Notes: generated by a model from the sequence alone, not told the origin. A stretch of DNA of 63,811 nucleotides from an uncultured Gammaproteobacteria bacterium (GCA_964427615.1 CAYRUR010000006.1:1-63811), one strand, 5' to 3'. Shown: positions 37,405 through 60,479, counted from the first letter of the stretch. Numbers and translations are program-made.

Positions 37405-39357
37405 TTAGGCTATTTGTGCATTAATATCTTTTTTCAGATGATTATAGATGCTTTCTCTTATCTGAGTAATATCTGCGTTGGTAAGATTTCTATCTTTACT
37501 TTGATATGTAATACGAAATGTCTTTTTATTCTCATACGTATCAATAAGTTCTACGTTTTGAATCAGTTCACTCTGCTTTTTAATAAGATTTACAATTTCA
37601 GCATAGGTTATGCTAGCATCTGCAATAAGGCTTACATCCTCAATAATAGGAGGATACTTTGAAAGAGGAGTATATGTTTTTTTCAGTGTCGCCTCTCTTT
37701 TTATCATCTCAAAATCAAGCTCAAAATCGATGAGATTTTCCTCTAATATCTCAATAGTTCCTATCCTATCTTTTTGTAAATAGACATCTGCTCCTTCTCC
37801 TCCACTTGCTTTTTTTGCAAAAGAATATGTTTTGATACCCAGATCTGAAAAGAGTTGCTCTATGATGCCTTTTACTTCATAAAAAGAAACATTGTCTTTT
37901 TTAATAACTCCAGCCAGATGTAGTATCTCTTTTGGCAAATTATTTTCTTGCTTTAGATATACTTTTGCTATTTCAAAAAGAGAAAGTGTCTGTCTGTTTT
38001 TATTTTCCTTTACTGCTTGTAATAGGCTGGGGATAAGCGTTGTTCTCATATACACCATATCTTCATTCAGAGGGTTTTGAATGGTGACTGCCTCTTCAGG
38101 TGCAACTTCAAGTAGCTCCTCTGAAACCATGGAGTATGTATACACTTCTGTAAAACCCCAGTATTTAAGCGCATTTTTTGCTCTTTCCTCCCAATAAAAT
38201 TCATTCGTATCAAGTTGATATGGTTGTATGCTGGTTGTAGGTGGGAGAATGCTAGGCAGTTTGTAATATCCATATACACGAGCTACTTCCTCTATGACGT
38301 CTTCTTCAATAGTGATATCATGAGCTCTGGATGACGGTGGCGTAACAGTGATGTGTTCTGCTGTTGATGCCACACGAAATCCAAGATCTTTTAAGATAGA
38401 CTCAACTGTCTTTTTCTCTATGGGTACCCCAATAACTTGTTGTATTTTTGAAAGTTCTACCGTTACACTTTGTGGCTCTATAGGATGAGGATAGATATCT
38501 ATAATATCTGCAATTACTGTAGCATCGGCAATTTGCTGGTACAGTTCGATTCCTCGCAAAAGTGCTTTGTAGGCAAGCTCTGGATCTACTCTTTTTTCAT
38601 TTAGAATTGCTGCTTCTGTACGAATACCCAGGGACATAGAGGTCTTTCGGATAAGATGCGGATTGTCATTGTTAATAAAAAGAACAATGCGCTGCGTATC
38701 ATCAGTTACTACACTATTTTCAACTCCCATAATGCCCGGTAGATCCACAATGGTACCTTTTCCGTCATCTGCGAGGATATCTCCTCCTGGCAGTGTATGT
38801 GTTTTGCCATCAAGTGTTGTAATTTTTTCTCCTGGTTTTGATTGTCTTATGGAAAGTGTTTTGGTGAGGAGTCTATCGTAATCAAACACATGTGCTGGAT
38901 GTCCCATCTCTACCATGACATAGTTGGTAATATCAATAAGGTTATTAAGACTTCTGATATCTGCTGATTCAAGCCTTTTTCTCATATATTCTGGAGATTT
39001 TCCTACCTTTACTTCCAAAATAGCAGCACATACTCTATTTACTAGTTTTGGATCATTTTTAATCGTTATTTCTGCTTCTTTTTTCTGTATTGTAGGTTTT
39101 TTGAGATCAAGTGGCGTAAAGGTTGCGTTGATTCCTGATTGAGGAAGGACAGCAGCAGCTTCTTGCGCAATGCCAATAATAGACATAAGGTCTGGTCTAT
39201 TCGTCGTAACTTCAATGTCATAGACAAAGTCGTTTCCGAATTTTTCTATTCTTTCTACAGAAACACTGGAAGCAGACAATGCTTTTGCCAGTTCTTTGGG
39301 TGAAGCATCTGTTTTTAAGTATTCTTTTAGCCAACTGTCTAAAATTTTTATATTCAT
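37405..39357 (-). CDS. pheT: phenylalanine--tRNA ligase beta subunit (short form lacking the N-terminal tRNA-binding insert)
   Basis: 650-aa ORF. The N-terminus MNIKILDSWLKEYL...DIEVTTNRPDLMSIIGIAQE runs straight into the B3/4 region. It has a C-terminal FDX-ACB-like domain. Confidence 0.9.
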   Translation of the reverse strand: MNIKILDSWLKEYLKTDASPKELAKALSASSVSVERIEKFGNDFVYDIEVTTNRPDLMSIIGIAQEAAAVLPQSGINATFTPLDLKKPTIQKKEAEITIKNDPKLVNRVCAAILEVKVGKSPEYMRKRLESADIRSLNNLIDITNYVMVEMGHPAHVFDYDRLLTKTLSIRQSKPGEKITTLDGKTHTLPGGDILADDGKGTIVDLPGIMGVENSVVTDDTQRIVLFINNDNPHLIRKTSMSLGIRTEAAILNEKRVDPELAYKALLRGIELYQQIADATVIADIIDIYPHPIEPQSVTVELSKIQQVIGVPIEKKTVESILKDLGFRVASTAEHITVTPPSSRAHDITIEEDVIEEVARVYGYYKLPSILPPTTSIQPYQLDTNEFYWEERAKNALKYWGFTEVYTYSMVSEELLEVAPEEAVTIQNPLNEDMVYMRTTLIPSLLQAVKENKNRQTLSLFEIAKVYLKQENNLPKEILHLAGVIKKDNVSFYEVKGIIEQLFSDLGIKTYSFAKKASGGEGADVYLQKDRIGTIEILEENLIDFELDFEMIKREATLKKTYTPLSKYPPIIEDVSLIADASITYAEIVNLIKKQSELIQNVELIDTYENKKTFRITYQSKDRNLTNADITQIRESIYNHLKKDINAQIA

Positions 39358-39472
39358 ATATTTTATTTAGCGTTTAGTGATTAGCGTATAGCGTTTAGTT
39401 ATTATAAAAAATTATTTTTTACTATACGCTAAACGCTATCTACTCTGATTTGTCAGAGTAACTAATCGCTAT

Positions 39473-40516
39473 TTAGAATTGTTCTAAAAAGTCCAGGTTA
39501 TTAGAATACAATAACCGTAAATCATCAATTTCAATGCCTTCTTTCATCATTAACACTCGTTCTACTCCCCAACCAAAAGCAAAGCCAGTATATTCTTTAG
39601 GGTCAATTCCGCCATTTTTTAAGACGTTAGGATGAACCATGCCTGCTCCTCCAATTTCAAGCCATCCTTCTTTACATAATCGGCACCCTACTCCATTGCA
39701 AATGCCACAGGAGATATCTACTTCAAAAGAAGGCTCGGTAAATTGGAATTGGTAGGGTCTGATACGGGTTACTCTTTGTTCTCCAAAATATGATTTGGCA
39801 AAATAATCCAATACTCCTTTTAAATGAGTAATGGATATGTCTTTATCAACTACCAAACCTTCAAACTGATGAAACATGGCAGTATGGGATATATCCGACT
39901 GTCTTCTGTAGGTTTTGGCGATATTGAGCATCCTGATTGGCAATTTTCCTTTTTCCATCTCTCGTATTTGACCTGATGAAGTATGAGGAGTGAGTACCAT
40001 AGGACCGTATTTATCACTTTCTTTTTGATTGATAAAAAAGGTTTCCCATTCATCTCTGGCAGGATGATTTTCAGGGAAATTTAAAGCACCGAAAGCATAC
40101 CAGTCCCACTCTACTTCTGGGTATCGTACTCGACTAAAGCCTATCTTTTCAAAAATACGTGTGATCTCTTCTATTGCTTGAGTAATCAGATGCAAATGTC
40201 CCAGCGGAGGTCTTACGCCTGGTAAGGTGATATCAATGGCTTCTCTTTTTGTTTCTTTTTTCTGTTGACGCAGCGCTGCTTCTTTTTCTGCCAAAAGGTT
40301 TTCTATGATTGTCTTTATTTCATTTGCAAGTCGGCCGACTTCTGGTTTTTGCTCTTTTGGTAGTTTGGTAATTTCTTTCAGAGTGGTAGTAAGTCTTCCA
40401 CTTTTACCTAAAAATGAGAGTCGCAACGTATTCACCTCTTCAAGATTTGAGGCATCAATGATCAACGCACTTGCATCATTTTTAATTTTTAAAAGCTCTT
40501 CTTCCATATATCTCAT
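39473..40516 (-). CDS. pheS: phenylalanine--tRNA ligase alpha subunit
   Basis: 347-aa ORF with HPARDEWETFF, class II motifs FRRQSDISHTAMFHQFEG and GFAFGWGVERV. An alternative start is at 40507. Confidence 0.95.
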   Translation of the reverse strand: MRYMEEELLKIKNDASALIIDASNLEEVNTLRLSFLGKSGRLTTTLKEITKLPKEQKPEVGRLANEIKTIIENLLAEKEAALRQQKKETKREAIDITLPGVRPPLGHLHLITQAIEEITRIFEKIGFSRVRYPEVEWDWYAFGALNFPENHPARDEWETFFINQKESDKYGPMVLTPHTSSGQIREMEKGKLPIRMLNIAKTYRRQSDISHTAMFHQFEGLVVDKDISITHLKGVLDYFAKSYFGEQRVTRIRPYQFQFTEPSFEVDISCGICNGVGCRLCKEGWLEIGGAGMVHPNVLKNGGIDPKEYTGFAFGWGVERVLMMKEGIEIDDLRLLYSNNLDFLEQF

Positions 40517-40560
40517 GCAAAAACAGCATGTTTAATTTGCTATCCTTATTGCTTAGGATA

Positions 40561-40896
40561 TCACAAATTGCGCTCATTTGCATTAATTTCACGGGTTAAT
40601 TGGTTTCCCACATAGTCTATTAAGACTACTCTACTACCCTCTTGAATAGCTTCTTGCTGTTCTGGATCCAATAGATTGTACATGGCATAAGTTGTCTCTG
40701 CTGTGCGAAGTTCACCTATTGGTACTTCTATACCTTGTTGTGCATCATATAAAACTTGTGCAGTTTTGGTAAGAGTGTCCCGTGAAATAACGGCTCCACT
40801 ATGGCTTTCTTCAGCCTTTCTTCTTATTTCATTACGACGCTCAAGTCCTGTCATAGGCTCTTGCATAGTTGCTACGTTAGTATCTCTTTCTACCAT
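40561..40896 (-). CDS. hypothetical protein, first gene downstream of the Phe/Tyr leader
   Basis: Start trimmed to ATG 40896, preceded by a strong SD (agaGGAGGTGaaaaatATG). 111 aa with no recognisable motif. It lies 45 nt upstream of pheS. Confidence 0.6.
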   Translation of the reverse strand: MVERDTNVATMQEPMTGLERRNEIRRKAEESHSGAVISRDTLTKTAQVLYDAQQGIEVPIGELRTAETTYAMYNLLDPEQQEAIQEGSRVVLIDYVGNQLTREINANERNL

Positions 40897-40924
40897 ATTT
40901 TTCACCTCCTCTCTTTTTTCCAAC

Positions 40925-41094
40925 AAAAAAACCTCCCGTTTGGGAGGTTCACTTTTTTGATGGATAGTTATCTTATTTTCTTAATCCACCAAGCAACCTC
41001 CCGGTTTGGGAAGTAAAGTAAAAGTAAAATGATACTGTCTGGTGGATGTTCATGATTAAATAATACGCTACCATAGTGTGATTCCTTTTGTCAA
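40925..41094 (-). promoter_or_regulatory. pheM-like ribosome-mediated transcription attenuator (cassette 4)
   Basis: -35 TTGACA (41094-41089), 18-nt spacer, TAGCGT (41070-65), mini-ORF 41053-40973. E1 CTTCCC (41013-08), E2 GGGAGGTT (41002-40995), E3 AACCTCCC (40949-42), E4 GGGAGGTT (40937-30) plus U-tract. Confidence 0.65.
40973..41053 (-). CDS. 26-codon leader peptide rich in Phe/Tyr
   Basis: Hand translation gives MNIHQTVSFYFYFTSQTGRLLGGLRK. The FYFYF codons lie just 5' of E1, and the ORF runs through E1 and E2. Confidence 0.55.
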   Translation of the reverse strand: MNIHQTVSFYFYFTSQTGRLLGGLRK

Positions 41095-41099
41095 GGTAA

Positions 41100-41456
41100 T
41101 TACTTTGAAGATTTAAAAGCGGTTTCTACGATTTTTTGAAATGTTGCTGCGTCTTCTTGTACCAGGTTGGCAAGCATTTTTCTGTTAATCTTGATGTTTT
41201 TCTCTGTCATGGCATGCATGAATGCGCTATAAGAGTGTCCTTGCAGTTTTACAGCCTCACTAATTCTGGTGATCCAAAGGCGTCTGAAATCTCTCTTCTT
41301 TCGCTTTCTGCCATGGTATGCATAGCTTCCTGCATGAAGCATCGCCTCTGTAGCTACTTGAATGAGTCTTCTCTTTGTACCTCTGTAACCTTTTGTAAGG
41401 TCTAATATTTTGTTATGTCTGCGTCTTGCGATGACGCCTCTTTTTACTCGTGCCAT
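41100..41456 (-). CDS. rplT: 50S ribosomal protein L20
   Basis: 118-aa ORF starting MARVKRGVIARRRHKKIL.., the typical L20 N-terminus. Confidence 0.95.
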   Translation of the reverse strand: MARVKRGVIARRRHNKILDLTKGYRGTKRRLIQVATEAMLHAGSYAYHGRKRKKRDFRRLWITRISEAVKLQGHSYSAFMHAMTEKNIKINRKMLANLVQEDAATFQKIVETAFKSSK

Positions 41457-41480
41457 ATTTATTAAAATTCTAAATTTACT

Positions 41481-41678
41481 TTATGCTTCTCCTAGCATTA
41501 TTTTTACTTTTTTTGCAAATGGTTTTGCTAGTTCTGCTGGTGTTTTCAGTCTTCTTAATGCTCTCTTTGTTTTATTGGTTTTCAAATGGCTTCTATTTTG
41601 TTGGCCATGCAATACTTTACCGGTTTTGGTAACCTTAAATCGTTTTGATACTGCTTTTCTTATTCTTAGTTTTCCCAT
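41481..41678 (-). CDS. rpmI: 50S ribosomal protein L35
   Basis: 65-aa ORF, MGKLRIRKAVSKRFKVTKTGKV... Confidence 0.9.
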   Translation of the reverse strand: MGKLRIRKAVSKRFKVTKTGKVLHGQQNRSHLKTNKTKRALRRLKTPAELAKPFAKKVKIMLGEA

Positions 41679-41690
41679 ATTATTTTATCC

Positions 41691-42224
41691 TTATTTTGCT
41701 TTTGTCATCAAAAGTATCATTTGTCTACCCTCCATGTGGGTATCTCTTTCTACTTTTGCTGCTTCAGCAAGCTTTTCTTTTACTTTTTGCAGTACTTGTT
41801 CTCCCATCTCTTTTCTCGTTATCTGTCTTCCTCTAAATTTGACTGCAAATTTTACTTTATTTCCATCTTCAAAAAACTCTCGTGCTCTTTTGAGCTTGAT
41901 TTCAAGATCATGCTCATCAATAAAAGGACCAAACTGAATTTGTTTGGTCTCTGAACTCTTTGCCGATCGTTTTTCTACTTGTTTTTTCTTCTTTAATTGA
42001 TACAGAAATTTACTGTAATCAATAATACGAGCAACAGGAGGCTCAGCTGTAGGAGCTATTTCAACTAAATCTAACTCCTTCTCTCTGGCAAGTTCTAAAG
42101 CTTCACTGAGAGGTACTACCCCTATTTGCTTGCCATCTTCACCGAGTAGCCTAATTGTCCGTGCCCGAATCTGTCCATTCCTCCTGTAAAAATTGTCTTT
42201 TTGAAATTTACGATTTTTGTTCAA
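41691..42224 (-). CDS. infC: translation initiation factor IF-3
   Basis: 177-aa ORF with IRARTIRLLGEDGKQIGV and a C-terminal domain. The ORF opens with TTG (no in-frame ATG near the N-terminus) and overlaps the thrS stop by 17 nt. Confidence 0.9.
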   Translation of the reverse strand: MNKNRKFQKDNFYRRNGQIRARTIRLLGEDGKQIGVVPLSEALELAREKELDLVEIAPTAEPPVARIIDYSKFLYQLKKKKQVEKRSAKSSETKQIQFGPFIDEHDLEIKLKRAREFFEDGNKVKFAVKFRGRQITRKEMGEQVLQKVKEKLAEAAKVERDTHMEGRQMILLMTKAK

Positions 42225-43965
42225 TTTCTTCTTTTATATTTGATATAAACGTTGGTACTTCTTGCATACCAAGGTCTTTACCTTCTCTCGTTCTCACTGA
42301 AACGTGTAATTTCCCCGTCTCTTCGGCTTTCACCTCTTCAGTCTTGCCTATTATACACATGTACGGTACCTTTTGTAAAGTGGCCTCTCTAATTTTTGCT
42401 CCTATAGTCTGATTTGAAAGATCAATCTCTGCTCTAATTCCTACTTGTGTCATGGCAGCATATATCTGGGAAGCAGTTTTTTCAAACTTATCCGATAATG
42501 GTAACACTGCAACTTGCATAGGTGAAAGCCATACAGGAAAGGCTCCAGCATAATGTTCAATCAAAATTGAAACAAAACGCTCAATAGATCCCATAACTGC
42601 ACAATGCATCATAACAATTTCCTCTGTTTCTCCTTTTTCATTGGTGATCTTAAGTCCAAATCGTTTTGGTAGATTCAGGTCAAGCTGAATAGTAGCTACT
42701 TGCCACTCTCTACCTAATGCATCTTTAGTCATAAAATCAATTTTTGGACCATACAGAGCTGCTTCACCAGGTGCTTCGTATGCTTTGACTCCTCTTTTTC
42801 TGGCTACATCGCGTAATTTGTCTTCTGCTTCTTGCCATACTTCTTCGTCTCCAATATACTTTTCCATGTGTTCAGGGTCATGCAAGGAAAGTCTTACCTC
42901 TAGTTCAAAACCAAATGTTTTATAAAAAGTGTCAATAATGTCCCATGTTCTCATAAATTCTTCTTCAATCTGAGATTTTCGTAAGAAAACGTGAGCATCA
43001 TCTTGGGTAATAGATCTCACTCGAGAAAGTCCTGATAACTCTCCACTCTGTTCGTCACGATAAACCATAGTAGTTTCGGTAAAACGTACTGGCATTTCTT
43101 TGTAGCTACGTGGTACATGGGCAAAGATTTGTATATGGTGTGGGCAATTCATAGGCTTCATAGCAAACAGATTGCCCTCGCGTGTTTCAATTTTAAAAAG
43201 TTCATCTTTGAATTTATCCCAATGTCCTGATGTTTCATACAAATCTTTTTTAGTGATGTGAGGGATTGTGACTTTTTGATATCCTTTTTCTTTTCTTAAT
43301 TTCCAAATAAAGTCATTTAGTTCTTCTCTGATAATTGTTCCTTTTGGAGTCCAAAGAGGAAGTCCAGGACCTATCAGGGGTGAAAAAGTAAATAAATCTA
43401 GCTCTTTTCCTAGCTTTTTGTGATCTCTTTTTTTTGCTTCTTCAAGCATAGTCAGATGATTTTCAAGTTCCTCTTTGGTAGAAAAACAAGTTCCGTAAAT
43501 ACGGGTAAGCATTTTATTTTTCTCACTACCCCGCCAGTAGGCTCCAGCAAGAGAAAGAAGTTTGAAAGCACCGATTTCTTGACGAGGGTTATCAGTATGT
43601 CCTCCTCGGCACAAGTCCTCAAATTCGCCCATTTTATAGAGCGTTATAGGTTCTCCTCTTTTGCTGATTTCGTCTATGAGCTCTAATTTGTAGGGATTAT
43701 TTTTGTATATTTCTTTTGCTTCTTGCTCTGTTACTTCTCTTTTAGAGTATCCTGTCCAGGTTTTGAGAATTTCCTTCATTTTTTGCTCAATTTTTGGTAG
43801 ATCTGCTTCAGAAATGGGTTGAGCAAAATCAATATCATAGTAAAATCCTCCTTCAATAGCAGGACCAATAGTAATTTTTGCATCAGGATAGAGGGTTAAC
43901 ACCGCAGCAGCAGTAAGGTGTGCACATGTGTGTCTTAAGTTATTCAGTTTTTCATTATTTTCCAT
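42208..43965 (-). CDS. thrS: threonine--tRNA ligase lacking the N-terminal TGS domain
   Basis: 585-aa ORF. It begins at the editing-domain motif LRHTCAHLTAAAV...GFYYDIDF. It carries class II motifs and a C-terminal anticodon-binding domain. Confidence 0.95.
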   Translation of the reverse strand: MENNEKLNNLRHTCAHLTAAAVLTLYPDAKITIGPAIEGGFYYDIDFAQPISEADLPKIEQKMKEILKTWTGYSKREVTEQEAKEIYKNNPYKLELIDEISKRGEPITLYKMGEFEDLCRGGHTDNPRQEIGAFKLLSLAGAYWRGSEKNKMLTRIYGTCFSTKEELENHLTMLEEAKKRDHKKLGKELDLFTFSPLIGPGLPLWTPKGTIIREELNDFIWKLRKEKGYQKVTIPHITKKDLYETSGHWDKFKDELFKIETREGNLFAMKPMNCPHHIQIFAHVPRSYKEMPVRFTETTMVYRDEQSGELSGLSRVRSITQDDAHVFLRKSQIEEEFMRTWDIIDTFYKTFGFELEVRLSLHDPEHMEKYIGDEEVWQEAEDKLRDVARKRGVKAYEAPGEAALYGPKIDFMTKDALGREWQVATIQLDLNLPKRFGLKITNEKGETEEIVMMHCAVMGSIERFVSILIEHYAGAFPVWLSPMQVAVLPLSDKFEKTASQIYAAMTQVGIRAEIDLSNQTIGAKIREATLQKVPYMCIIGKTEEVKAEETGKLHVSVRTREGKDLGMQEVPTFISNIKEEIEQKS

Positions 43966-48378: not shown

Positions 48379-50337
48379 TTATCCTGCTTGAGCAAAAGAC
48401 TCAAATGCTTTTTTAACTTTTATGATGTCTTCAGCATTTTTTATCTGCATTTTTTCCAGCTTTCGGACGATTTCAAGAGGAGGTACTCCTCTATCATATT
48501 CTTTAAGGATTACTTCACTGATGGGTCCTTTTGGATCCATAGTATATTCTTCTATGGAATCAGCAGGTTCTTCTAGTAAGTTTTGTATTCTGACTCGTGC
48601 CAGAGCACATTGCATTTCAAGTGCAGGATATTTATCCTGCATATCATTAATAAAACGAATACTCTCATGTATTACCTCAGTTACCTCAGGATGTTCAGGG
48701 TCTGAAAATCCATGCAAACTTGCATCTATTGCTAAGTCTTTTTGTTTATCAGCAGTCGCAATATGAGGATAATTTTCTTTGAAGTATTCAATTGGTTGTT
48801 GCCCATTTGCTAATGCTTCATATGCCCCTACTGCCAGTAGTTGTAAGAAAGAGTTACGTGCTGCCTCATCCATAATAGATGGAGATGATGAGCATCCAGT
48901 GTATTCAATTCTTCCAGTTTTGTCCTCAGGTTTACTTGTGTTAATTCGCGCTCGTGCTCTACCGTGTTGAACCGGGTATTTTTTTCCGTCAATTTCGGCT
49001 ACGAGAGATGCTCTATCAAGTCTATCTGCAGGTCCATTTACTATGTTTTCTGTAATTCTTTCTCGTAAGGCTTCAGGAGTTCTAATAAAACCACTTGGGA
49101 AGCCAGTGTTAAGCGTGTAGCGTAGAAGTGCTCTGACATCTCTTGGACGATGCTTTTTCCCATCCATTTCTACTTCTGGAGTTGTTTCCCATACCAGAGG
49201 AGTACTCATCATAAGCATCTCAGCTACTGTAGCTAAATCGCTATTCATTACGTCTGTAACTGCTACCACTTCTTGTTCTGTAACAAATACTCGTCCCTTC
49301 TCATCTCTATGATGTGGAAGGCCAATATTTAAATGAGATGCTGCAATAGCCCAGTATCCTAAGTGTCCAAGTTCTGCTTTCATTTCTTCAAAGTTTGCAT
49401 ATCCTTTTTGTTGAGCTATATTTTCCATCATTTTTTGCGTAGCGGGTTCTAGACAATCAGCTTGCTCTCTGAAAAGTAAATCCTGCATAGATTTGACATA
49501 ATCTCCAATGTCTCCTTCCATACAAATATTCATTTTCTCCGGAGTGCTTGTCATAGGGGTACTGGTGTCTACTATTGCCACATGAGGGTATTTCTCTTTT
49601 CTTTTTTGAATTTGTTCTGATCTTGCTTCAAAGAACGCAAGAGGTTCGCTGACTGGATCTACAGTTTCTTCTATAGTTCCTTTTAAGAGTTCTCCACCGT
49701 CTATATTGGCCAGATCTCCTTTTTCATCTGCTGCAAATCCTTCTGGTTCGCTTCCAAATTTTCCAAATCCACCAAAGGTAGTAGGAATTTGAGAAAAATC
49801 TGGGGCATCTTTGATTGCTTGAATCATTTTTCCAGCATATTCTGTAACGTATTCATCGTCTACGGCTTTCATGAGAGAAGTTTCTACATGATCAGCTGTT
49901 TGTTCTGCCCCAAACGTGATTTTGTCATCAATTTCTGTTGGAATGTATTTTGGATTTTTTATTACAAATGCAATACTTCCGTCTTTATTGAGTCCTACTA
50001 CTCCGGTTTTTTGTAACGTACCAACTAGTGAAATTTCATTATCAATATTTGAGAATTCTTCTTGTCTTTCTGTAATTTCTGCTGAAAGCATAGGGAGAGT
50101 GAGAGGGGATTCACAGGAAAGATATTTTTTCTTTGCTTCTTTTGTGGATGAGGGTGTTTTATTTTCAGAGTGTGTTGAGATGATCCCATTAGGTCCAACG
50201 TTTTCAAGTGGTACATTACTATGTCCGTTAGACTCTGCTCCATTAAAAGCCATTGGTTGTGTGGTTTCTGCCATAGGATAATCTCCAGCTTCTATCTGGT
50301 GTGTAATTCTATGTTGTTCTAAATAATTTCTAGCCAT
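48379..50337 (-). CDS. large hypothetical protein; C-terminal half weakly resembles carboxylate-amine ligase (GCS2/glutamine-synthetase fold)
   Basis: 652-aa ORF. SHLNIGLPH, MMSTPLVWE...RPRD and GRIEYTGCSSSPS are loosely reminiscent of YbdK-type ligases (recollection only). An alternative SD-preceded start is at ATG 50274. Confidence 0.6.
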   Translation of the reverse strand: MARNYLEQHRITHQIEAGDYPMAETTQPMAFNGAESNGHSNVPLENVGPNGIISTHSENKTPSSTKEAKKKYLSCESPLTLPMLSAEITERQEEFSNIDNEISLVGTLQKTGVVGLNKDGSIAFVIKNPKYIPTEIDDKITFGAEQTADHVETSLMKAVDDEYVTEYAGKMIQAIKDAPDFSQIPTTFGGFGKFGSEPEGFAADEKGDLANIDGGELLKGTIEETVDPVSEPLAFFEARSEQIQKRKEKYPHVAIVDTSTPMTSTPEKMNICMEGDIGDYVKSMQDLLFREQADCLEPATQKMMENIAQQKGYANFEEMKAELGHLGYWAIAASHLNIGLPHHRDEKGRVFVTEQEVVAVTDVMNSDLATVAEMLMMSTPLVWETTPEVEMDGKKHRPRDVRALLRYTLNTGFPSGFIRTPEALRERITENIVNGPADRLDRASLVAEIDGKKYPVQHGRARARINTSKPEDKTGRIEYTGCSSSPSIMDEAARNSFLQLLAVGAYEALANGQQPIEYFKENYPHIATADKQKDLAIDASLHGFSDPEHPEVTEVIHESIRFINDMQDKYPALEMQCALARVRIQNLLEEPADSIEEYTMDPKGPISEVILKEYDRGVPPLEIVRKLEKMQIKNAEDIIKVKKAFESFAQAG

Positions 50338-50380
50338 AAAATCTTATAGTATTTTACTATATTTTAGTACATTTAGCAAT

Positions 50381-50539
50381 AAAAAAATCTCCCTTTTAGT
50401 GGGAGATTGCAAGTTTTTTAAGTCCTTATGATTCTCCCACCGTATTAGCTGCTCCAAAAAAGGAGGCCAAAGCCAATAATGGGAAGAAACATCTTATTCA
50501 TGGATTCCCATTCTAAAATAGATTCACTTCTTTTGTCAA
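50381..50539 (-). promoter_or_regulatory. cassette 1: promoter, leaderless mini-ORF, antiterminator/terminator
   Basis: -35 TTGACA (50539-34), 18 nt, TAGAAT (50515-10), ATG 50501. E1 GTGGGAGA (50440-33), E2 TCTCCCAC (50406-399), E3 GGGAGA (50393-88), U7 (50387-81). Confidence 0.6.
50445..50501 (-). CDS. 18-codon mini-ORF of cassette 1
   Basis: MNKMFLPIIGFGLLFWSS. Its stop TAA lies 4 nt 5' of E1. The C-terminal LLFW-x-x-stop resembles the cassette 2 peptide. Confidence 0.4.
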   Translation of the reverse strand: MNKMFLPIIGFGLLFWSS

Positions 50540-50589
50540 GGTAAAAAATAGTCATAGTAGTTATATTAGTTTTTGTATATTTATTTTTT

Positions 50590-50803
50590 ATGTTGTTATT
50601 TTGGGTGAAGAAGGGTGAGAAAGCAGTCTAAATTCACGATAAATTGAGAAGCACGTTTGCCACTCATTTTCGTAAATTGCGCATAAGCGCACTACTTCCC
50701 ACCCTTCAGTTGCCTGCTTGAGACTACAATGTCTCGCAGCTGTGTCCGACTTTAGCCTGTGTGGACTGCATCAAGACATTCATGCCGCAAGCAGTGGTTG
50801 TGA
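50590..50803 (-). ncRNA. GC-rich structured RNA segment (3' UTR element or independent ncRNA), class unknown
   Basis: Domain 1 has nested helices on the minus strand: CTGCTTG/CAAGCAG, AATGTCT/AGACATT, GCAG/CTGC, GTCC/GGAC. Domain 2 is closed by GAAGGGTG/CACCCTTC and contains the TGCGC-ttat-GCGCA hairpin. Confidence 0.4.
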
Positions 50804-51115
50804 TCAGGTGAGGTCTGGATTGTACCATCCCGGAGAAGGATGATGTTTCCAGAATCTTCTGAAGAGCTTTTCTGCATCTTCTCGGACAGTTTTTTGAGAA
50901 GTCTCTATCCGACACTTGCTCGCTAGAGACCAACGTGGAGGTTTCTCCGGGTTGAGTTCTTTTGAGTAGAGTGCAATAGAGCCTCTCGGAGCTCTCCCTC
51001 CGTGTTTCAGAAGTACAGAGTTGAATGAGACACCGAAATGCGTTAAGTCTTCCATCACCTCCTGGGCGAATGAGTCTAGCTCCCACGCCACAATAACAAT
51101 AGGTTTTCCCTGCAT
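50804..51115 (-). CDS. hypothetical protein (island ORF B)
   Basis: 103-aa ORF with SD aaAAGGAGaactctgcATG. It is GC-rich. The N-terminal KPIVIVAWELDSFAQEVMEDL suggests a beta-alpha-beta unit. Confidence 0.55.
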   Translation of the reverse strand: MQGKPIVIVAWELDSFAQEVMEDLTHFGVSFNSVLLKHGGRAPRGSIALYSKELNPEKPPRWSLASKCRIETSQKTVREDAEKLFRRFWKHHPSPGWYNPDLT

Positions 51116-51147
51116 GCAGAGTTCTCCTTTTGATGCGGATGACGAAG

Positions 51148-51672
51148 CTAATAGAAGAGAGACATCTCTCGACGACGAGCTCTCGTGCGATTTCGATCTC
51201 TCTTCGGTCTGGGCTTCTTTTGGATTTTAAGCCCTTCGGTTCGGTGCCATGCGCCCTTGCTTCGGCGTTCGTAGTAGATAACGTCTTGAAGGACAGAGGC
51301 GAGGCTGGTCGTAAGCCACGGGTGCTTAGGTGGAAGATCATTCTCAGAGGAGACAAGCAGAGACTCTGCTGCTCTTGCTGCATTGAGTACCGACTCCGAG
51401 AAGTTACCCTTAAGGTTGTCTCGTAAGATTACTCCAAGTACGAACCTCTGTTCCCATACATGTTGCCCTTGGTGGGAGAGGAGAACGTGTCGTGCGTGTC
51501 TGCCAGGCCATCTTTCAGAGTTGCCCGAGGCAAAAAGAACGGAAAGATGAGGTGCAGGAGCGTGCCGATCTATGAAAGACACCTCGCATCCCTTGTCCTG
51601 CAGGATCTTGATTGCCGCTTCACTGAGGGGATCACCCTTGATTCCCACGTAACTAACAGGTCGCGTGCTCAT
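51148..51672 (-). CDS. hypothetical protein with Arg/Lys-rich tail (island ORF A)
   Basis: 174-aa ORF with SD aaAAGGAGccgacaaATG. Its C-terminal tail is KKPRPKRDRNRTRARRRE. It is GC-rich. Confidence 0.55.
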   Translation of the reverse strand: MSTRPVSYVGIKGDPLSEAAIKILQDKGCEVSFIDRHAPAPHLSVLFASGNSERWPGRHARHVLLSHQGQHVWEQRFVLGVILRDNLKGNFSESVLNAARAAESLLVSSENDLPPKHPWLTTSLASVLQDVIYYERRSKGAWHRTEGLKIQKKPRPKRDRNRTRARRREMSLFY

Positions 51673-51943
51673 TTGTCGGCTCCTTTTCTTTAGATCACTT
51701 CGTTCCGACTCCTCTTAGGGTAAGACTCGTGTCTACTCCTTTCCGATTTTTTCTACCGCTTCAGATTCCTAACCAAGAGTTTGAGGAGAGACAAATCCTT
51801 ATTGTACCCCCTCTACCCTTAGCTAGGAATAGAACTGTTCACAACCATTTGTTCTGAATATGTAGCATACTAATCTTCCGCTTGTGGAAGCTGTTTTGCC
51901 TATTCAGAACAGTTTTTAATGTGCAATAATGCATTTTTTTAGC
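51673..51943 (-). promoter_or_regulatory. long structured 5' leader between the cassette 2 terminator and ORF A
   Basis: It contains the TTGCACATT box (51926-18). A hairpin domain at 51850-51912 has outer stem tgttctgaata/tattcagaaca and inner stem cttcc-ACAAGC-ggaag. It is paralogous to 52759-52935. Confidence 0.4.
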
Positions 51944-52132
51944 AAAAAAAATCCTCCCGTTTTGTGGGAGGTTCTCTTTTTTTGCTTTTATTTTTTGAAT
52001 TACTTTCTTCTTAATAAAATCCTCCCACAAATTAGTCTCTCCAGACAAGGAGATTGACCATGCATGTAATGTGGAATGGATTCATATTCATAATTCTTGC
52101 TCATTGTAAAAGAATGACTCTTGTTTTGTCAA
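51944..52132 (-). promoter_or_regulatory. cassette 2: promoter, leaderless mini-ORF, antiterminator/terminator
   Basis: -35 TTGACA (52132-27), 18 nt, TACAAT (52108-03), ATG 52091. E1 GTGGGAGG (52028-21), E2 CCTCCCAC (51971-64), E3 GGGAGG (51958-53), U8 (51951-44). Confidence 0.6.
52032..52091 (-). CDS. 19-codon mini-ORF of cassette 2
   Basis: MNMNPFHITCMVNLLVWRD. Its stop TAA lies 3 nt 5' of E1. Confidence 0.4.
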   Translation of the reverse strand: MNMNPFHITCMVNLLVWRD

Positions 52133-52148
52133 GATGAAAATGGGACGA

Positions 52149-52176
52149 GAGAGCGTGGATATTACTCCACGCTCTC
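52149..52176 (-). terminator. perfect 11-bp hairpin just after the ORF C stop (possible terminator or processing site)
   Basis: gagagcgtgga-tattac-tccacgctctc. On the minus strand it is followed only by a short interrupted U stretch (cgucccauuuuc). Confidence 0.4.
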
Positions 52177-52182
52177 CATGAA

Positions 52183-52758
52183 TCAGACAAGGTGAGTGCT
52201 GAGCATGGTTTCTGTAAGCCAAAATCGTGCTTCTGCTCCTGCTCTTTGTTCTTTCCTGTTCTCCTTTCTACCTTTGTGGGTGGCTTTCTCGTATTTTCGT
52301 TTTATGTGTGCCAGCGCACGTCTATGAGGTCTTCGGTCTGAACGTGAGAGCCGTTGCTTTGGCATACGTATCTCTCCCAGGGCTTTTCTCACTCGTCTCT
52401 GCCATGCAATGACTTCATTTCCCCCGTAGAGTCTTACTCCCAAAGAGTCGAAGTCCTCTGTGATGAGGAATGAGATGTATTTGTTAATCACGCCTCTCAA
52501 CTTCTTTATGCTCACATTCTCACCTACTTCAATTAGAAAAGGTGAATTAATGTCAGCAGGACAATCTTCGGGAACATGGGGAATAATCCTAACTTTGCTT
52601 CCCAAAGATTTATTGCCGATTAAGGCGATATCCTGTTGTTTGCACTGTACCTTCCCAATAACTTGGGTTGGAAATCCATCTACCCAAGCAAGTGCTAGGA
52701 TGGCGAGAGCGATGCTGTCGCTTTCAGAAGCAACAATGGTAGGAACGAACGAACTCAT
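52183..52758 (-). CDS. hypothetical protein with Arg/Lys-rich tail (island ORF C)
   Basis: 191-aa ORF with SD ttGAAGGAGGctcatcATG. The N-terminal VPTIVASESDSIALAIL and later ITEDFDSLG could fit a Toprim- or NYN-like fold (speculative). The tail is RSDRRPHRR...KRKYEK..KGRKENRK. Confidence 0.55.
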   Translation of the reverse strand: MSSFVPTIVASESDSIALAILALAWVDGFPTQVIGKVQCKQQDIALIGNKSLGSKVRIIPHVPEDCPADINSPFLIEVGENVSIKKLRGVINKYISFLITEDFDSLGVRLYGGNEVIAWQRRVRKALGEIRMPKQRLSRSDRRPHRRALAHIKRKYEKATHKGRKENRKEQRAGAEARFWLTETMLSTHLV

Positions 52759-52935
52759 GATGAGCCTCCTTCAACTGCTATGAGCTTAACAGACTTTCGA
52801 CAATGGGCCAAAACCCAAGGGATAAGAATCTCCTCTCACTTGTCTGATTATCTACTCTGAATAGACAAACAGTATCAGAAAATCTCTTGCTTATAAGAGA
52901 TCTGATATACGGTTATCAATGTGCAAATTTGCTAC
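52759..52935 (-). promoter_or_regulatory. structured 5' leader between the cassette 3 terminator and ORF C
   Basis: It contains the TTGCACATT box (52926-18) and the hairpin atcaga..tctctt-ATAAGC-aagaga..tctgat (52874-52906). The loop is conserved with the ORF A leader while the stems differ. Confidence 0.4.
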
Positions 52936-53109
52936 AAAAAAACCTCCCGTCTGGGAGGTGTCTGTAATTTGTATTAAATTTTAATTAGAAATTGGTATGT
53001 ATTCCTCCCACAACAAACCTAACCCCTCATTCTGGGGTGTTTGCTGCGTTTTGGTGAGGACACAAATACCATAAGAGGCATTATAACTAAATGGTTTCTG
53101 ATACGTCAA
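52936..53109 (-). promoter_or_regulatory. cassette 3: promoter, leaderless mini-ORF, antiterminator/terminator
   Basis: -35 TTGACG (53109-04), 18 nt, TATAAT (53085-80), ATG 53072. E1 GTGGGAGG (53011-04), E2 CCTCCCAG (52958-51), E3 GGGAGG (52948-43), U7 (52942-36). Confidence 0.55.
53019..53072 (-). CDS. 17-codon mini-ORF of cassette 3
   Basis: MVFVSSPKRSKHPRMRG. Its stop TAG lies 7 nt 5' of E1. The peptide is unrelated to those of cassettes 1 and 2. Confidence 0.3.
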   Translation of the reverse strand: MVFVSSPKRSKHPRMRG

Positions 53110-53127
53110 GCAAAAAGGAAAAATAGT

Positions 53128-53820
53128 CTACCCTGTTTGGGTAACAACGCTTCTTTCGTTGCTGAGGGTGAAGTTGTTGCCGTGTTTACCAGCCATATTC
53201 CAGTATTGTTTTTGAGATTTTTTGCTAGCAAAAAGGCTGAGCCAATTCTGTCCTTCTTCTATACGTGCACGCGCATTTTTAATGGTTATAAGCACCCATT
53301 CAAAGAAGCTTACCTCATATTGGGAAGGACGGTGTACTGTTTGGGTTTTTACCTGTGTGGAGACTTGCTTGAATGCTGTTTCCATTTCTTGTGAGGCAGT
53401 GATAAGTTTTCTAATTTCGGTCTGTACTTCTTGAATTCTGGCAACGGTTACTGAATTTTCTTCATGTTTTGTCTTTTCGGTAGAACTTTCAACATCTCTT
53501 CGGAAGTACTCCCGATGAAGAGCAAATCTTTTTTGAGACTCCATAACTCTGTTTTCTTGCTTTGTAACTGTTTTTTCTTCTTTTTGTAGGTATATTTCCT
53601 GCCCTTCTGATAAGATTCCTTCTGATTTTTTAGTAGATTTTTCTGTACCGAGAGCTTGTTTTGGAATACCTTCTGCAGTATTCTTTAAGAAGTTTTTGAA
53701 AAATTCGTCTAAAGCTGATGTACCGAGGTTTTTCAGTTCTCTTCCAGCACCCTCCCGTAAGGATTCAATCCCGTTATCCCGATACACAGTTCTTTTGTTG
53801 GTGTTGGCATTTCCTCTCAT
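53128..53820 (-). CDS. hypothetical protein
   Basis: 230-aa ORF. It is charged and coiled-coil-like, with a conserved-looking C-terminus WLSLFASKKSQKQYWNMAGKHGNNFTLSNERSVVTQTG. Confidence 0.5.
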   Translation of the reverse strand: MRGNANTNKRTVYRDNGIESLREGAGRELKNLGTSALDEFFKNFLKNTAEGIPKQALGTEKSTKKSEGILSEGQEIYLQKEEKTVTKQENRVMESQKRFALHREYFRRDVESSTEKTKHEENSVTVARIQEVQTEIRKLITASQEMETAFKQVSTQVKTQTVHRPSQYEVSFFEWVLITIKNARARIEEGQNWLSLFASKKSQKQYWNMAGKHGNNFTLSNERSVVTQTG

Positions 53821-56724: not shown

Positions 56725-56984
56725 CCCTCGTGTTAATATTTAGCGCTTAGCATATAGCGTTTAGTAATTAGATTACTCCTTTATTCTTTATTAGCGGGTT
56801 AACGAGTTGGTTTTTAGTATTAAGTATAAAGTATCAAGTATTAAGCATAAAAATATAAGGTTTAGCATCTCAACTTAAAAGAAAAAATACTTAATTCTTA
56901 CTTCTTAACTCTTAATTCTAATTTAGTGCTTGGCATTTTCTAGTTAGGTTTTAAAGCTGCATTTGGCTCTAAAAAGGAAAAAGG

Positions 56985-57125
56985 CGTCGGGATACCCGAT
57001 CAGAAAAGAAGTTCGTGGTAGTTACCACAGGAGCGCTTTTGGAACGCTATCTGGTTACTTCTCTCTTCTCAGCTATCTTCTTCCGACGCCTCTCTCTTGT
57101 CCGTTTTACTGGGAATACCCGAGGC
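56985..57125 (-). ncRNA. multi-stem structured element 3' of the Cys/His mini-protein gene
   Basis: On the minus strand, the closing stem GGCGTCGG/CCGACGCC encloses the hairpins gtggt-aact-accac and agcg..cgct. It is followed by ctttttccttttt. The repeated box cgggtat(t)ccc is present. Confidence 0.35.
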
Positions 57126-57344
57126 TTATTCTCTCCAAGGGAGCTTTTCTCCGTTGCTGGTAGTGCTGTTATGGGTATTCTCCCAATGTGCGCGAGCACA
57201 GGTTGTATGGTAATCGCCGTGCTCAGGACATCTCATCGTGGCAGATGAATTTCCTGCACTTATTAAGGCACGATTACATTCGCAGCACTTAAGCCCTTCT
57301 AGCTGGGTTTTTCTGTCGACCTGTTGCTTAGCTTGCTGAGTCAT
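57126..57344 (-). CDS. 72-aa Cys/His-rich (zinc-ribbon-like) protein in a GC-rich islet
   Basis: Start at ATG 57344 with SD agAAAGGAGcagagtacaatcATG. It contains CCEC...CPEH...H..C..H. The 5' UTR shares the AGTGATCT..AGAAAGGAGC box with island ORF A. Confidence 0.5.
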   Translation of the reverse strand: MTQQAKQQVDRKTQLEGLKCCECNRALISAGNSSATMRCPEHGDYHTTCARAHWENTHNSTTSNGEKLPWRE

Positions 57345-57576
57345 GATTGTACTCTGCTCCTTTCTTGAGGAGATCACTCTAAAGTTTTCAACGGACAAGA
57401 GAAAAACCTCAGGCAAGAGCGTATCTGTCAGTCTTTAAGACTTGAGAACACTCTTTCCGAGATAACGCCATTTTAGCATAAGAGTGAGGATTATGAGGAG
57501 GGTTGAAGAGTTGCGAGTTAAAGAATTAATGGGATGAAAGTGAGTATTTTTATTTCAAGTTAAAATTCTAAATTAT

Positions 57577-59987: not shown

Positions 59988-60151
59988 ACAAAAGTATATT
60001 ATAGCAAAAACAATTCATCTTGTAATCTGCAATGTTTTTGGTACAATATGAAGGTACATTAACTGGAAAATTTGCATTTTTGTGCATTATTAAATCAAGG
60101 ATTTTCTGAATTAAAACCATAAAGAATTTGGAGAAAACTTGATTTTGACAT

Positions 60152-60233
60152 GGGCTTGTGGTGAAATTGGTATACACGCAGTCTTGAGGTGGCTGTGCCG
60201 TATGGCGTGGAGGTTCGAGTCCTCTCAAGCCCA
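60152..60233 (+). tRNA. tRNA-Leu (anticodon GAG)
   Basis: gggcttgtggtgaaattggtatacacgcagtcTTGAGGTggctg is followed by a long variable arm and ggttcgagtcctctcaagccca. Confidence 0.9.
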
Positions 60234-60314
60234 CACTTCGGCAAGCTCAGTGTAAACTGGGCATGACGAAGGGTTGTAGAGGGCGAGAAGTTTATCCTGA
60301 GCAAAGTCGAAGGA

Positions 60315-60331
60315 AGTCCTCTCAAGCCCAC
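60315..60331 (+). repeat. 17-nt duplicate of the tRNA-Leu(GAG) 3' end
   Basis: agtcctctcaagcccac occurs at 60218-60234 (inside the tRNA) and again at 60315-60331. The 80-nt filler is made of window repeat modules. Confidence 0.8.
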
Positions 60332-60479
60332 TATTCACTCTCAGAGTGAGAAATTGTAAATTCTAAAAATTGTTTAAAATTTGTTCCTAACTCAGTTGTT
60401 TAATACTTTCTCCCAAATTAAAAGAGGCCACTATAAAAGCGACCTCTCTAAGATTGTTTCTTCGATGGTGTTTTGACTA

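Follow-up and report, generated by a model that had tools for sequence, protein, structure and literature searches.

A GC-rich island of three small genes

The DNA analyzed here is a stretch of 63,811 nt assigned to an uncultured Gammaproteobacteria bacterium (GCA_964427615.1, CAYRUR010000006.1:1-63811) and referred to below, at its full length, as the window. On its minus strand, positions 50590-52758 hold an island of three small, GC-rich open reading frames (ORFs), A, B, and C, each preceded by a Shine–Dalgarno (SD) site and interleaved with regulatory elements. Collectively, our analyses suggest that the island is probably a set of tandem, lineage-specific transcription units native to a Levyibacteria-like chromosome (Microgenomates, Candidate Phyla Radiation [CPR]) and not recent cargo. 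ORF C forms unit 1 and ORFs A and B form unit 2. The features of the locus, in order of transcription, are as follows.

52935-53109, minus strand: cassette 1, a predicted leader-peptide attenuator; promoter TTGACG at 53109-53104, 18-nt spacer, TATAAT at 53085-53080; short ORF at 53072-53019 (MVFVSSPKRSKHPRMRG), 7 nt after the −10 box; region 2 GTGGGAGG at 53011-53004; terminator stem at 52959-52942 plus T-run
52759-52934, minus strand: 5′ leader of ORF C, with the post-terminator motif TTGCACATTGATAACCGT, two hairpins, and the SD site GAAGGAGG at 52772-52765
52183-52758, minus strand: ORF C, 191 aa, isoelectric point (pI) 10.1, with a basic C-terminal third; positional counterpart of L004a, an ORF at the related locus L004
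52149-52177, minus strand: 12-bp GC-rich hairpin 3′ of ORF C, the likely terminator of unit 1, abutting the −35 box of cassette 2
51945-52132, minus strand: cassette 2; promoter TTGACA at 52132-52127, 18-nt spacer, TACAAT at 52108-52103; short ORF at 52091-52032 (MNMNPFHITCMVNLLVWRD); region 2 GTGGGAGG at 52028-52021; terminator at 51971-51953 plus T8
51673-51944, minus strand: long 5′ leader of ORF A, with the motif GCACATTAAAAACTGTTCTGAA, stem-loop I (GTTCTGAAT/ATTCAGAAC), a second long hairpin, and the SD site AAGGAG at 51685-51680
51148-51672, minus strand: ORF A, 174 aa, pI 10.3; α/β domain and K/R-rich C-terminal helix; member of a rare conserved family
50804-51115, minus strand: ORF B, 103 aa, 32 nt after A and predicted to be cotranscribed with it; SD site AAGGAG at 51129-51124
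50600-50803, minus strand: GC-rich structured 3′ element; outer stem 50707-50696 with 50621-50610, and an inner hairpin
50379-50539, minus strand: cassette 3, preceding a host-like gene for a 652-aa protein; promoter TTGACA at 50539-50534, 18-nt spacer, TAGAAT at 50515-50510; short ORF at 50501-50445 (MNKMFLPIIGFGLLFWSS); region 2 GTGGGAGA; terminator at 50408-50386
40920-41095, minus strand: cassette 4, between rplT and a 111-aa ORF that is followed by pheS-pheT; leader ORF at 41053-40973 (MNIHQTVSFYFYFTSQTGRLLGGLRK); terminator at 40946-40928
52909-52926 and 51909-51926, minus strand: the noncoding motif GCACATT(A/G)A(A/T)AAC(C/T)GT, also found at ~75-95 of locus L003 and ~1028-1050 of L004

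A preliminary description of this DNA, made from the sequence alone, had placed three minus-strand ORFs at these positions and had quoted highly basic tails for A and C, all of which we recovered. It had also pointed to an abrupt change in composition, and this is equally plain: the 60-nt lines starting at 51241 and 50521 hold 34 and 14 G+C, respectively, and a sliding-window analysis identifies the island as the strongest departure in the window (0.555 versus 0.376 for the window, with a standard deviation of 0.043 among 200-nt windows). Two GC peaks, 0.555 at 50841-51803 and 0.50 at 52127-52534, fall within the stretches 50.6-51.8 kb and 52.1-52.9 kb, which form the longest and highest GC excursion of the whole window. 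The G+C content is 0.524 in ORF A, 0.481 in ORF B, 0.455 in ORF C, and 0.471 in the 3′ element after B. GC-richness extends beyond the ORFs, with 47% G+C in the 200 nt 3′ of ORF B, and the GC-rich units are interleaved with the AT-rich cassettes (0.33-0.38).

An abrupt change of composition is the sole point in favor of an assembly chimera, that is, a fragment of a GC-richer organism joined into an AT-rich contig. This possibility, raised in the preliminary description, is excluded to near certainty, because two independent assemblies, from runs SRR7082966 and SRR7082976, reproduce both island junctions at 100% identity over 5.7 kb and 4.7 kb of the window. Jointly they cover the region from trigger factor through DUF5660, C, A, B, and the 652-aa gene to the M20 peptidase gene. 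Moreover, native AT-rich cassettes alternate with the GC-rich ORFs, and relatives have the same layout.

ORF A belongs to a rare protein family

An exhaustive HMMER scan of 1.84 billion cluster representatives returned six relatives of ORF A (E values of 4e-19 to 1e-4, 27-42% identity, 134-182 aa), so that the family consists of only seven 50%-identity clusters in that collection. Its members share the motifs D..L...AI..L..GC, WPSRH, L.VALR.N..GNF..AVLNAAR..E, WL, and TP.LWP.KKK and end in a K/R-rich tail, with 6-13 Lys or Arg residues among the last 35 across the seven members and pI values of 8.8-10.3. Because the A frame is open in all seven genes, the other frames containing 1-17 stops, and because differences among the seven genes run 3 > 1 > 2 by codon position in most pairwise comparisons, ORF A is a protein-coding gene under purifying selection. 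It evolves faster than housekeeping genes (40% protein identity versus 52-58%). In six of the seven loci, all except L007, the family gene is GC-enriched over its flanks. Other searches added nothing: a word-indexed protein search with A, too insensitive for this family, returned the query alone, missing all six HMMER-found relatives; the same search with the family alignment returned only known members; and a metagenome scan with a three-sequence alignment recovered only L004 again.

A longer reading frame, a 219-aa ORF at 50724-51383 (minus strand), runs across the end of A and the whole of B. Its frame is stop-poor in L003 (3 stops) and L004 (1 stop) as well, but not in more distant members; given these stops and its negative codon score, we rejected it as a true gene and regard it as an artifact of stop-poor sequence.

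The AlphaFold model of A, built on a seven-sequence alignment, is fairly confident (predicted local distance difference test score [pLDDT] 77.6, predicted TM-score [pTM] 0.72) and comprises an α/β domain of ~110 residues, two helices, and the K/R-rich C-terminal helix; the elements run β1, α1, β2 to β5, α2, α3, a short strand, and the basic α4. The check by AlphaFold and Foldseek that the preliminary description had proposed thus yielded, for A, a usable model but no close fold neighbor. Zincin-like domains scored best, and weakly: a phage M10-domain protein (E 5e-4, TM 0.36) and a GH20 N-terminal domain (E 0.012, TM 0.35), with matrix metalloproteinases (MMPs) also among the matches. The model resembles the zincin-like fold, as seen in the MMP/M10 catalytic domain, SprT-like proteins, and the N-terminal domain of GH20 hexosaminidases, in its order of elements, a mixed sheet and then a long helix. 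However, the TM-scores are low (0.35-0.36), no peptidase family is similar to it in sequence, and none of the seven family members contains HExxH or another metal-binding motif, the equivalent conserved helix reading (V/L)xNAARxxE. No convincing fold match for A was found in BFVD.

The three proteins had been called unassignable, and they are: A, B, C, and the family profile have no sequence match in Pfam, NCBIfam, PHROG, PADLOC, or PDB. The accompanying idea of a defense or toxin–antitoxin function was not supported by models of known systems, as PADLOC matched none of A, B, and C (the best score for any family member being E 0.034) and PHROG gave no match; the proteins could still belong to a novel kind of system. 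No relatives of the island proteins occur among 2.9 million viral contigs, and on this ground, together with the BFVD result, a viral origin was rejected. The A family can also be compared with DUF5660 and DUF5665, CPR-restricted families that flank the locus; they too are small, lineage-restricted proteins of the same syntenic block, but the A family lacks a Pfam model and is far rarer. The A family is itself restricted to the CPR and, like many families there, is undescribed until now. Its conserved basic tail, the only functional clue, suggests nucleic acid binding.

Predicted leader-peptide attenuators precede the units

The preliminary description had placed an attenuator cassette of native type upstream of each unit. 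Indeed, a promoter, a short ORF, and a terminator precede C, A, and the 652-aa gene in cassettes 1-3. The promoters of these cassettes (at 53109, 52132, and 50539) score 11/12 against the consensus, and the terminators lie ~120-150 nt downstream. In cassettes 1-3 and in loci L004, L012, L024, and L027, the ATG of the short ORF lies 6-11 nt after the −10 box, with cassettes 1-3 at 7-11 nt, and the predicted translation product spans 17-26 codons. Alternative folds are predicted for cassettes 1-4, L004, and L012, in which region 2, GUGGGAGG(A), has two possible partners, a stretch within the short ORF and the terminator's 5′ arm. From locus to locus, changes in region 2 are matched by changes in region 3, the pair being GTGGGAGG/CCTCCCAC in the window and L004, GCGGGTAG/CTACCCGC in L027, and GGGCGG/CCGCCC in L024. 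The leader of cassette 4 encodes FYFYF; cassettes 1-3 contain single Phe codons or a Leu-Leu pair (CTC CTT), the latter in frame in cassettes 2 and 3, L004, and L012. Weak Rfam matches on the cassettes are all to Phe_leader, none at the gathering score (30.6 versus 55 bits). A scan of genome contigs for the cassette pattern yielded 12 loci, of which the two in CPR genomes were inspected: that in L012 is a genuine cassette, and L014 (Roizmanbacteria) was rejected as a GC-rich chance match.

Because the fourth copy, with its FYFYF leader, precedes pheST, we read the cassettes, on the strength of their sequence, as native leader-peptide attenuators of the amino acid type. In Escherichia coli, the pheM attenuator sits between rplT and pheS, which is exactly the position of cassette 4. 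In the window, the surrounding cluster (37405-43965, minus strand) runs thrS-infC-(rpmI)-rplT, the leader with its pheM-like attenuator, a 111-aa orphan ORF with a strong SD site (40561-40896), and pheS-pheT, and so has an extra gene before pheS.

The cassettes are like the E. coli pheM-pheST, trp, leu, and his leaders in having a promoter, a short ORF, four regions that can form either 1:2 plus a 3:4 terminator or a 2:3 antiterminator, and a U-run. In contrast to those leaders, their short ORFs are predicted to be leaderless, starting 6-11 nt after the −10 box without an SD site; cassettes 1-3 lack a run of a single codon and precede orphan genes instead of biosynthetic or aminoacyl-tRNA synthetase genes; and an extra conserved leader of 180-270 nt separates the terminator from the gene. 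As far as sequence and predicted folds can tell, the cassettes are a leaderless variant of the textbook attenuation mechanism. A second point of comparison is provided by ribosome-stalling leader peptides, which induce genes on translation stress, as in the antibiotic-responsive attenuators found by term-seq. Here the likeness lies in a short upstream ORF without an obvious amino acid run, the choice between terminator and antiterminator, and nonbiosynthetic downstream genes; however, none of the genes downstream in the present case is a resistance gene (ABC-F, methyltransferase, or efflux), and no stalling motif was identified. A literature search for leader-peptide attenuation in CPR bacteria found no paper.

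The 652-aa gene behind cassette 3 has no SD site and carries a promoter-like sequence of its own, TTGCTA-17-TAAAAT, 12 nt before the ATG; its dependence on the cassette is therefore uncertain. The gene (48379-50337, minus strand) is host-like in composition, and its reading frame overlaps the M20 peptidase gene. Its product has no match in Pfam, NCBIfam, PHROG, or PADLOC and no relative in a pattern scan of 185,579 species genomes.

SD sites, leaders, and a conserved 3′ element

Textbook SD sites, as previously described, lie 4-6 nt before the starts of C, A, and B (AAGGAGG, AAGGAG, and AAGGAG, respectively). Many flanking host genes had been described as apparently leaderless, and the host is indeed largely so: 39 of 41 genes lack an SD site of at least 6 nt, and 17 of the 41 carry, 5-12 nt upstream of the ATG, a TAnnnT box that is often a perfect TATAAT, versus 17% at random positions. 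One of the two host genes with such an SD site is the 111-aa ORF behind cassette 4, with AGGAGGTG. The idea that SD use marks the island as foreign is therefore not supported. Position would instead explain why A, B, C, and the cassette-4 ORF have SD sites: these genes start hundreds of nucleotides into their transcripts and cannot be leaderless.

The noncoding parts of the units are strongly structured. The 3′ element (50600-50799) folds at −81.8 kcal/mol (z −7.5), and the leaders and 3′ element reach z-scores of −7.5 and −7.8; for the ORF bodies, z ranges from about +1 to −3.5 and is mostly near 0. The Y-shaped 3′ element is homologous to that after the A gene in L003 and L004, with its stems kept by compensatory changes, and stem-loop I of the A leader has two compensatory pairs relative to the same two loci. 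The motif GCACATT(A/G)A(A/T)AAC(C/T)GT directly follows the terminators of A- and C-type units in three genomes.

ORFs B and C

The evidence that B and C are genes is indirect. Both have a higher codon score in frame than in the other frames and well-placed SD sites. The open frame of C, at 195 codons, far exceeds the mean of 89 codons in 1000 dinucleotide shuffles (95th percentile 131, maximum 205; p ~0.002). ORF length alone is no proof of coding, because all three minus-strand frames are long in island 2 (234, 188, and 140 codons versus a shuffle mean of 110). ORF B is absent from L003 and L004. BLASTP among A, B, and C found no significant similarity, and a local hidden Markov model (HMM) of the A family places B at E 0.7; the three were accordingly rejected as recognizable paralogs, and B and C may be extremely divergent or partial paralogs of the A family. 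The sequence ITEDFDSLG is present in ORF C, as reported, but the Toprim- or NYN-type nuclease fold conjectured from it was not borne out by any Pfam, NCBIfam, or PDB sequence match at E values up to 1-10. A single-sequence AlphaFold model of C (pLDDT 41) is unusable for judging its fold.

These properties invite the question of whether the GC-rich stretches might be structured noncoding RNAs in which the ORFs, or B and C at the least, are open only by chance. The unusually open frames of island 2, the 219-aa alternative-frame ORF across A and B, the folding of unit 1 over its full 801 nt (z −5 on either strand), the strongly structured leaders and 3′ element, and the lack of homologs of B and C would all be accommodated by this explanation. 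The conserved frame, the 3 > 1 > 2 pattern, and the confident fold prediction exclude it for A. For B and C, it conflicts with the well-spaced AAGGAG(G) sites, the codon scores, and the improbable length of the C frame. Moreover, the ORF bodies fold about as their shuffles do, and Rfam finds nothing: only tRNAs pass the gathering threshold in the window, and 50200-53300 has nothing near threshold at E values up to 10. We therefore rejected a structured noncoding RNA for the whole island; it is ruled out for A, unlikely for B and C, and as a general account highly improbable.

Relatives and synteny

The orthologs of A in L003 and L004 are 36-40% identical to it (40% for P0003 of L003; the L004 protein is P0004), are GC-enriched, and lie directly upstream of tRNA-Val(GAC) and a gene for an HD protein. 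In the window, the extra 652-aa and M20 genes stand between the island and this block of tRNA-Val, HD, DUF5665, and threonyl-tRNA synthetase (ThrRS) genes. The neighbors are conserved between the window and these loci at 58% (HD protein), 52% (DUF5665), and 54% (ThrRS) identity, and the tRNA-Val(GAC) of the window is 98% identical to that of L003 over 63 nt and 86% identical to that of L004 over a longer stretch. Locus L004 repeats the layout of the window: a strong promoter, a short ORF, a terminator of the same type (CCTCCCACAAAACGGGAGGATTTTTTTTG), the motif, a GC-rich ORF, and the Y-shaped 3′ element. Its terminator and region 2 are near-identical to those of cassette 2, and its post-terminator motif reads GCACATTAAAAACCGTTCTAAAA...TTTTAGAACAAAAAGTTGTGG, where the window has GCACATTAAAAACTGTTCTGAAT...ATTCAGAACAAATGGTTGTGA and two pairs of the stem differ in a compensatory way. 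L004 also carries another GC-rich ORF upstream, L004a, which is related to the A family (hhalign probability 83%) and holds the same position as ORF C.

At L007, L024, and L027, the more distant members likewise show a promoter and short ORF, a terminator matched by an upstream antiterminator copy, a leader of 120-230 nt, and an SD site. At L007 (9680-9900), the most distant of the family, the upstream short ORF has 51 codons and encodes a hydrophobic, membrane-like peptide (..LTSLFTWLFIISILFCLIITS..), followed by the terminator. In L012, a Candidatus Levyibacteriota metagenome-assembled genome, the junction between the DUF5660 stop codon and the cassette is the same, followed by an unrelated AT-rich 86-aa ORF, tRNA-Val, DUF5665, and ThrRS.

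Proposed mechanism

The arrangement of the cassettes points to the following scheme. Each unit would start at a strong σ70-type promoter, and its transcript would open with a leaderless ORF of 17-19 codons. In one fold, region 1 (codons ~4-8 of the short ORF) would pair with region 2 (GUGGGAGGA), and region 3 (CCUCCCAC) would pair with region 4 (GGGAGG and the U-run) as a terminator; in the other, region 2 would pair with region 3, and the terminator could not form. A ribosome stalled on region 1 would free region 2, and RNA polymerase would read on, as in the trp and pheST leaders. Read-through would then enter the leader of 180-270 nt and the SD-bearing ORFs, far from the 5′ end, with unit 2 ending in the conserved Y-shaped structure.

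We infer that the units are induced on translational stalling or amino acid shortage. Whether the basic-tailed proteins would bind RNA or the ribosome under such stress is doubtful, and this is the most speculative step. Still bolder, and unlikely in its entirety, is the idea that the A family and its divergent paralogs B and C are small, basic-tailed proteins of a class found only in the CPR, which bind RNA or ribosomes and are switched on by leaderless attenuators upon stalling, as a starvation or translation-stress module of episymbiotic bacteria. If it were true, the C-ending, GC-rich codons could be an adaptation to translation when the usual tRNA pools are depleted, and the post-terminator motif and Y-shaped 3′ element would serve the stress module as additional regulatory RNA.

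Native units or acquired genes

The preliminary description took the region for horizontally acquired cargo wired into a duplicated native regulatory module. This reading is not supported by comparison with relatives, since the A ortholog, the attenuator, the leader motif, and the 3′ element are syntenic in L003 and L004. A appears to be native and probably vertically inherited, because GC-enriched orthologs occupy the same syntenic place in both. GC-rich orthologs at the same position had been named as a sign of native origin; they exist in L003 and L004, although as diverged proteins (36-40% identical) and not as identical copies, and L012 has none. A recent arrival of defense, toxin–antitoxin, or nuclease genes behind duplicated native cassettes would fit the GC at third codon positions (GC3) of 0.42-0.52 in the island versus 0.28 (standard deviation 0.03) in the host, the atypical codon usage, the SD use unlike that of the host, the different gene found after DUF5660 in L012, and the orphan status of B and C. 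It is nevertheless improbable. A shares its leader and 3′ element with two relatives whose proteins are at ~55% identity, a distance over which a neutral foreign GC3 would have faded; there is no integrase, transposase, flanking direct repeat, or phage or defense signature at the locus; and the proteins have neither nuclease or toxin domains nor relatives in PADLOC, PHROG, or viral contigs. Nor does the island sit at a tRNA end, as tRNA-Val lies 3.4 kb away, beyond two host-like genes.

An older event is harder to set aside. Here, A would have come from a GC-richer donor into the common ancestor of the window, L003, and L004, or independently into several CPR lineages, and been domesticated under native attenuators, with its composition kept by selection. 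The slot is variable, L012 carrying a different, AT-rich ORF there, so an older acquisition is possible; the patchy distribution (seven representatives in 1.84e9), the faster evolution of A, and a composition that has ameliorated in L007 while staying GC-rich in most hosts would agree with one. No donor lineage was found, however, and the attenuator, long leader, and gene layout are common even to L007, L024, and L027, which suggests long coevolution with such control within the group. On balance, we consider ancient acquisition unlikely.

Codon usage bears on the same question. The bias in the island is mainly toward C-ending NNY codons (TTC 0.75 versus 0.19 in the host; TAC 0.89 versus 0.30), and the host genes nearest to it in this preference are rplT (0.56) and the DUF5660 gene at 53128-53820 on the minus strand (0.52). 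This pattern hints at expression-linked selection. Six of the seven family loci keep the GC excess, which is therefore more probably under maintenance, say through codon choice linked to expression as in rplT, than a remnant of transfer on its way out. RNA structure was rejected as its source in the ORF bodies, where folding z-scores are mostly near 0.

Several observations weigh against tandem native units under stalling control, the reading we favor. A is absent from the junction in L012, a relative at similar distance, and the family gene of L007 is not GC-rich (0.395 versus 0.38); vertical descent of A is shown only for the clade of the window, L003, and L004. The GC3 of A (0.52) is above that of all host genes, with G-ending Lys, Glu, and Gln codons beyond the NNY pattern, and codon selection alone may be insufficient for this excess. 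For ORF C, the word-indexed search returned the query only, although the same tool missed all relatives of A; for ORF B, no homolog was detected, the large protein collections not having been searched with it. The shared N-terminal unit that the preliminary description saw in all three proteins remains as a weak likeness between the first 50 residues of B and the A-family profile (hhalign E 2.6e-4, probability 42%); BLASTP gives it no significant support, and C does not match (hhalign E 0.029, probability 1.7%). Cassettes 1-3 have no regulatory codon run, so that their control codons are not obvious, and the basic tail is the single basis for a role in RNA or ribosome binding.

A large part of bacterial diversity belongs to the Patescibacteria (CPR), which cannot make most amino acids and in which we know of almost no characterized gene regulation. 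Judged by sequence and predicted folds, the locus bears the hallmarks of ribosome-mediated attenuation in a version suited to a largely leaderless, SD-poor system, with four or more paralogous copies within 64 kb. It also singles out a tiny, conserved, structurally unassigned family as a putative attenuation target and so offers a handle on the response to amino acid or translation stress. Finally, it carries a caution: an abrupt GC and codon island with SD-dependent genes can be native, and composition alone would mislabel it as horizontal transfer.

Other features of the window

Two further GC-rich patches lie in the window. The patch at 56950-57391 contains a small minus-strand ORF (57126-57344) with an AAGGAG SD site; its product, 72 aa long, is rich in Cys and resembles a zinc ribbon (..CCECNRAL..CPEHGDYHTTCARAHW..). 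Neither Rfam nor NCBIfam gives a match for it, an overlapping 96-aa ORF starting at TTG has no Pfam match, and the region upstream is unlike the cassettes. The patch at 60102-60389 lies around and after tRNA-Leu(GAG), and its minus strand reads ..SFDFAQDKL.. at 60225-60338.

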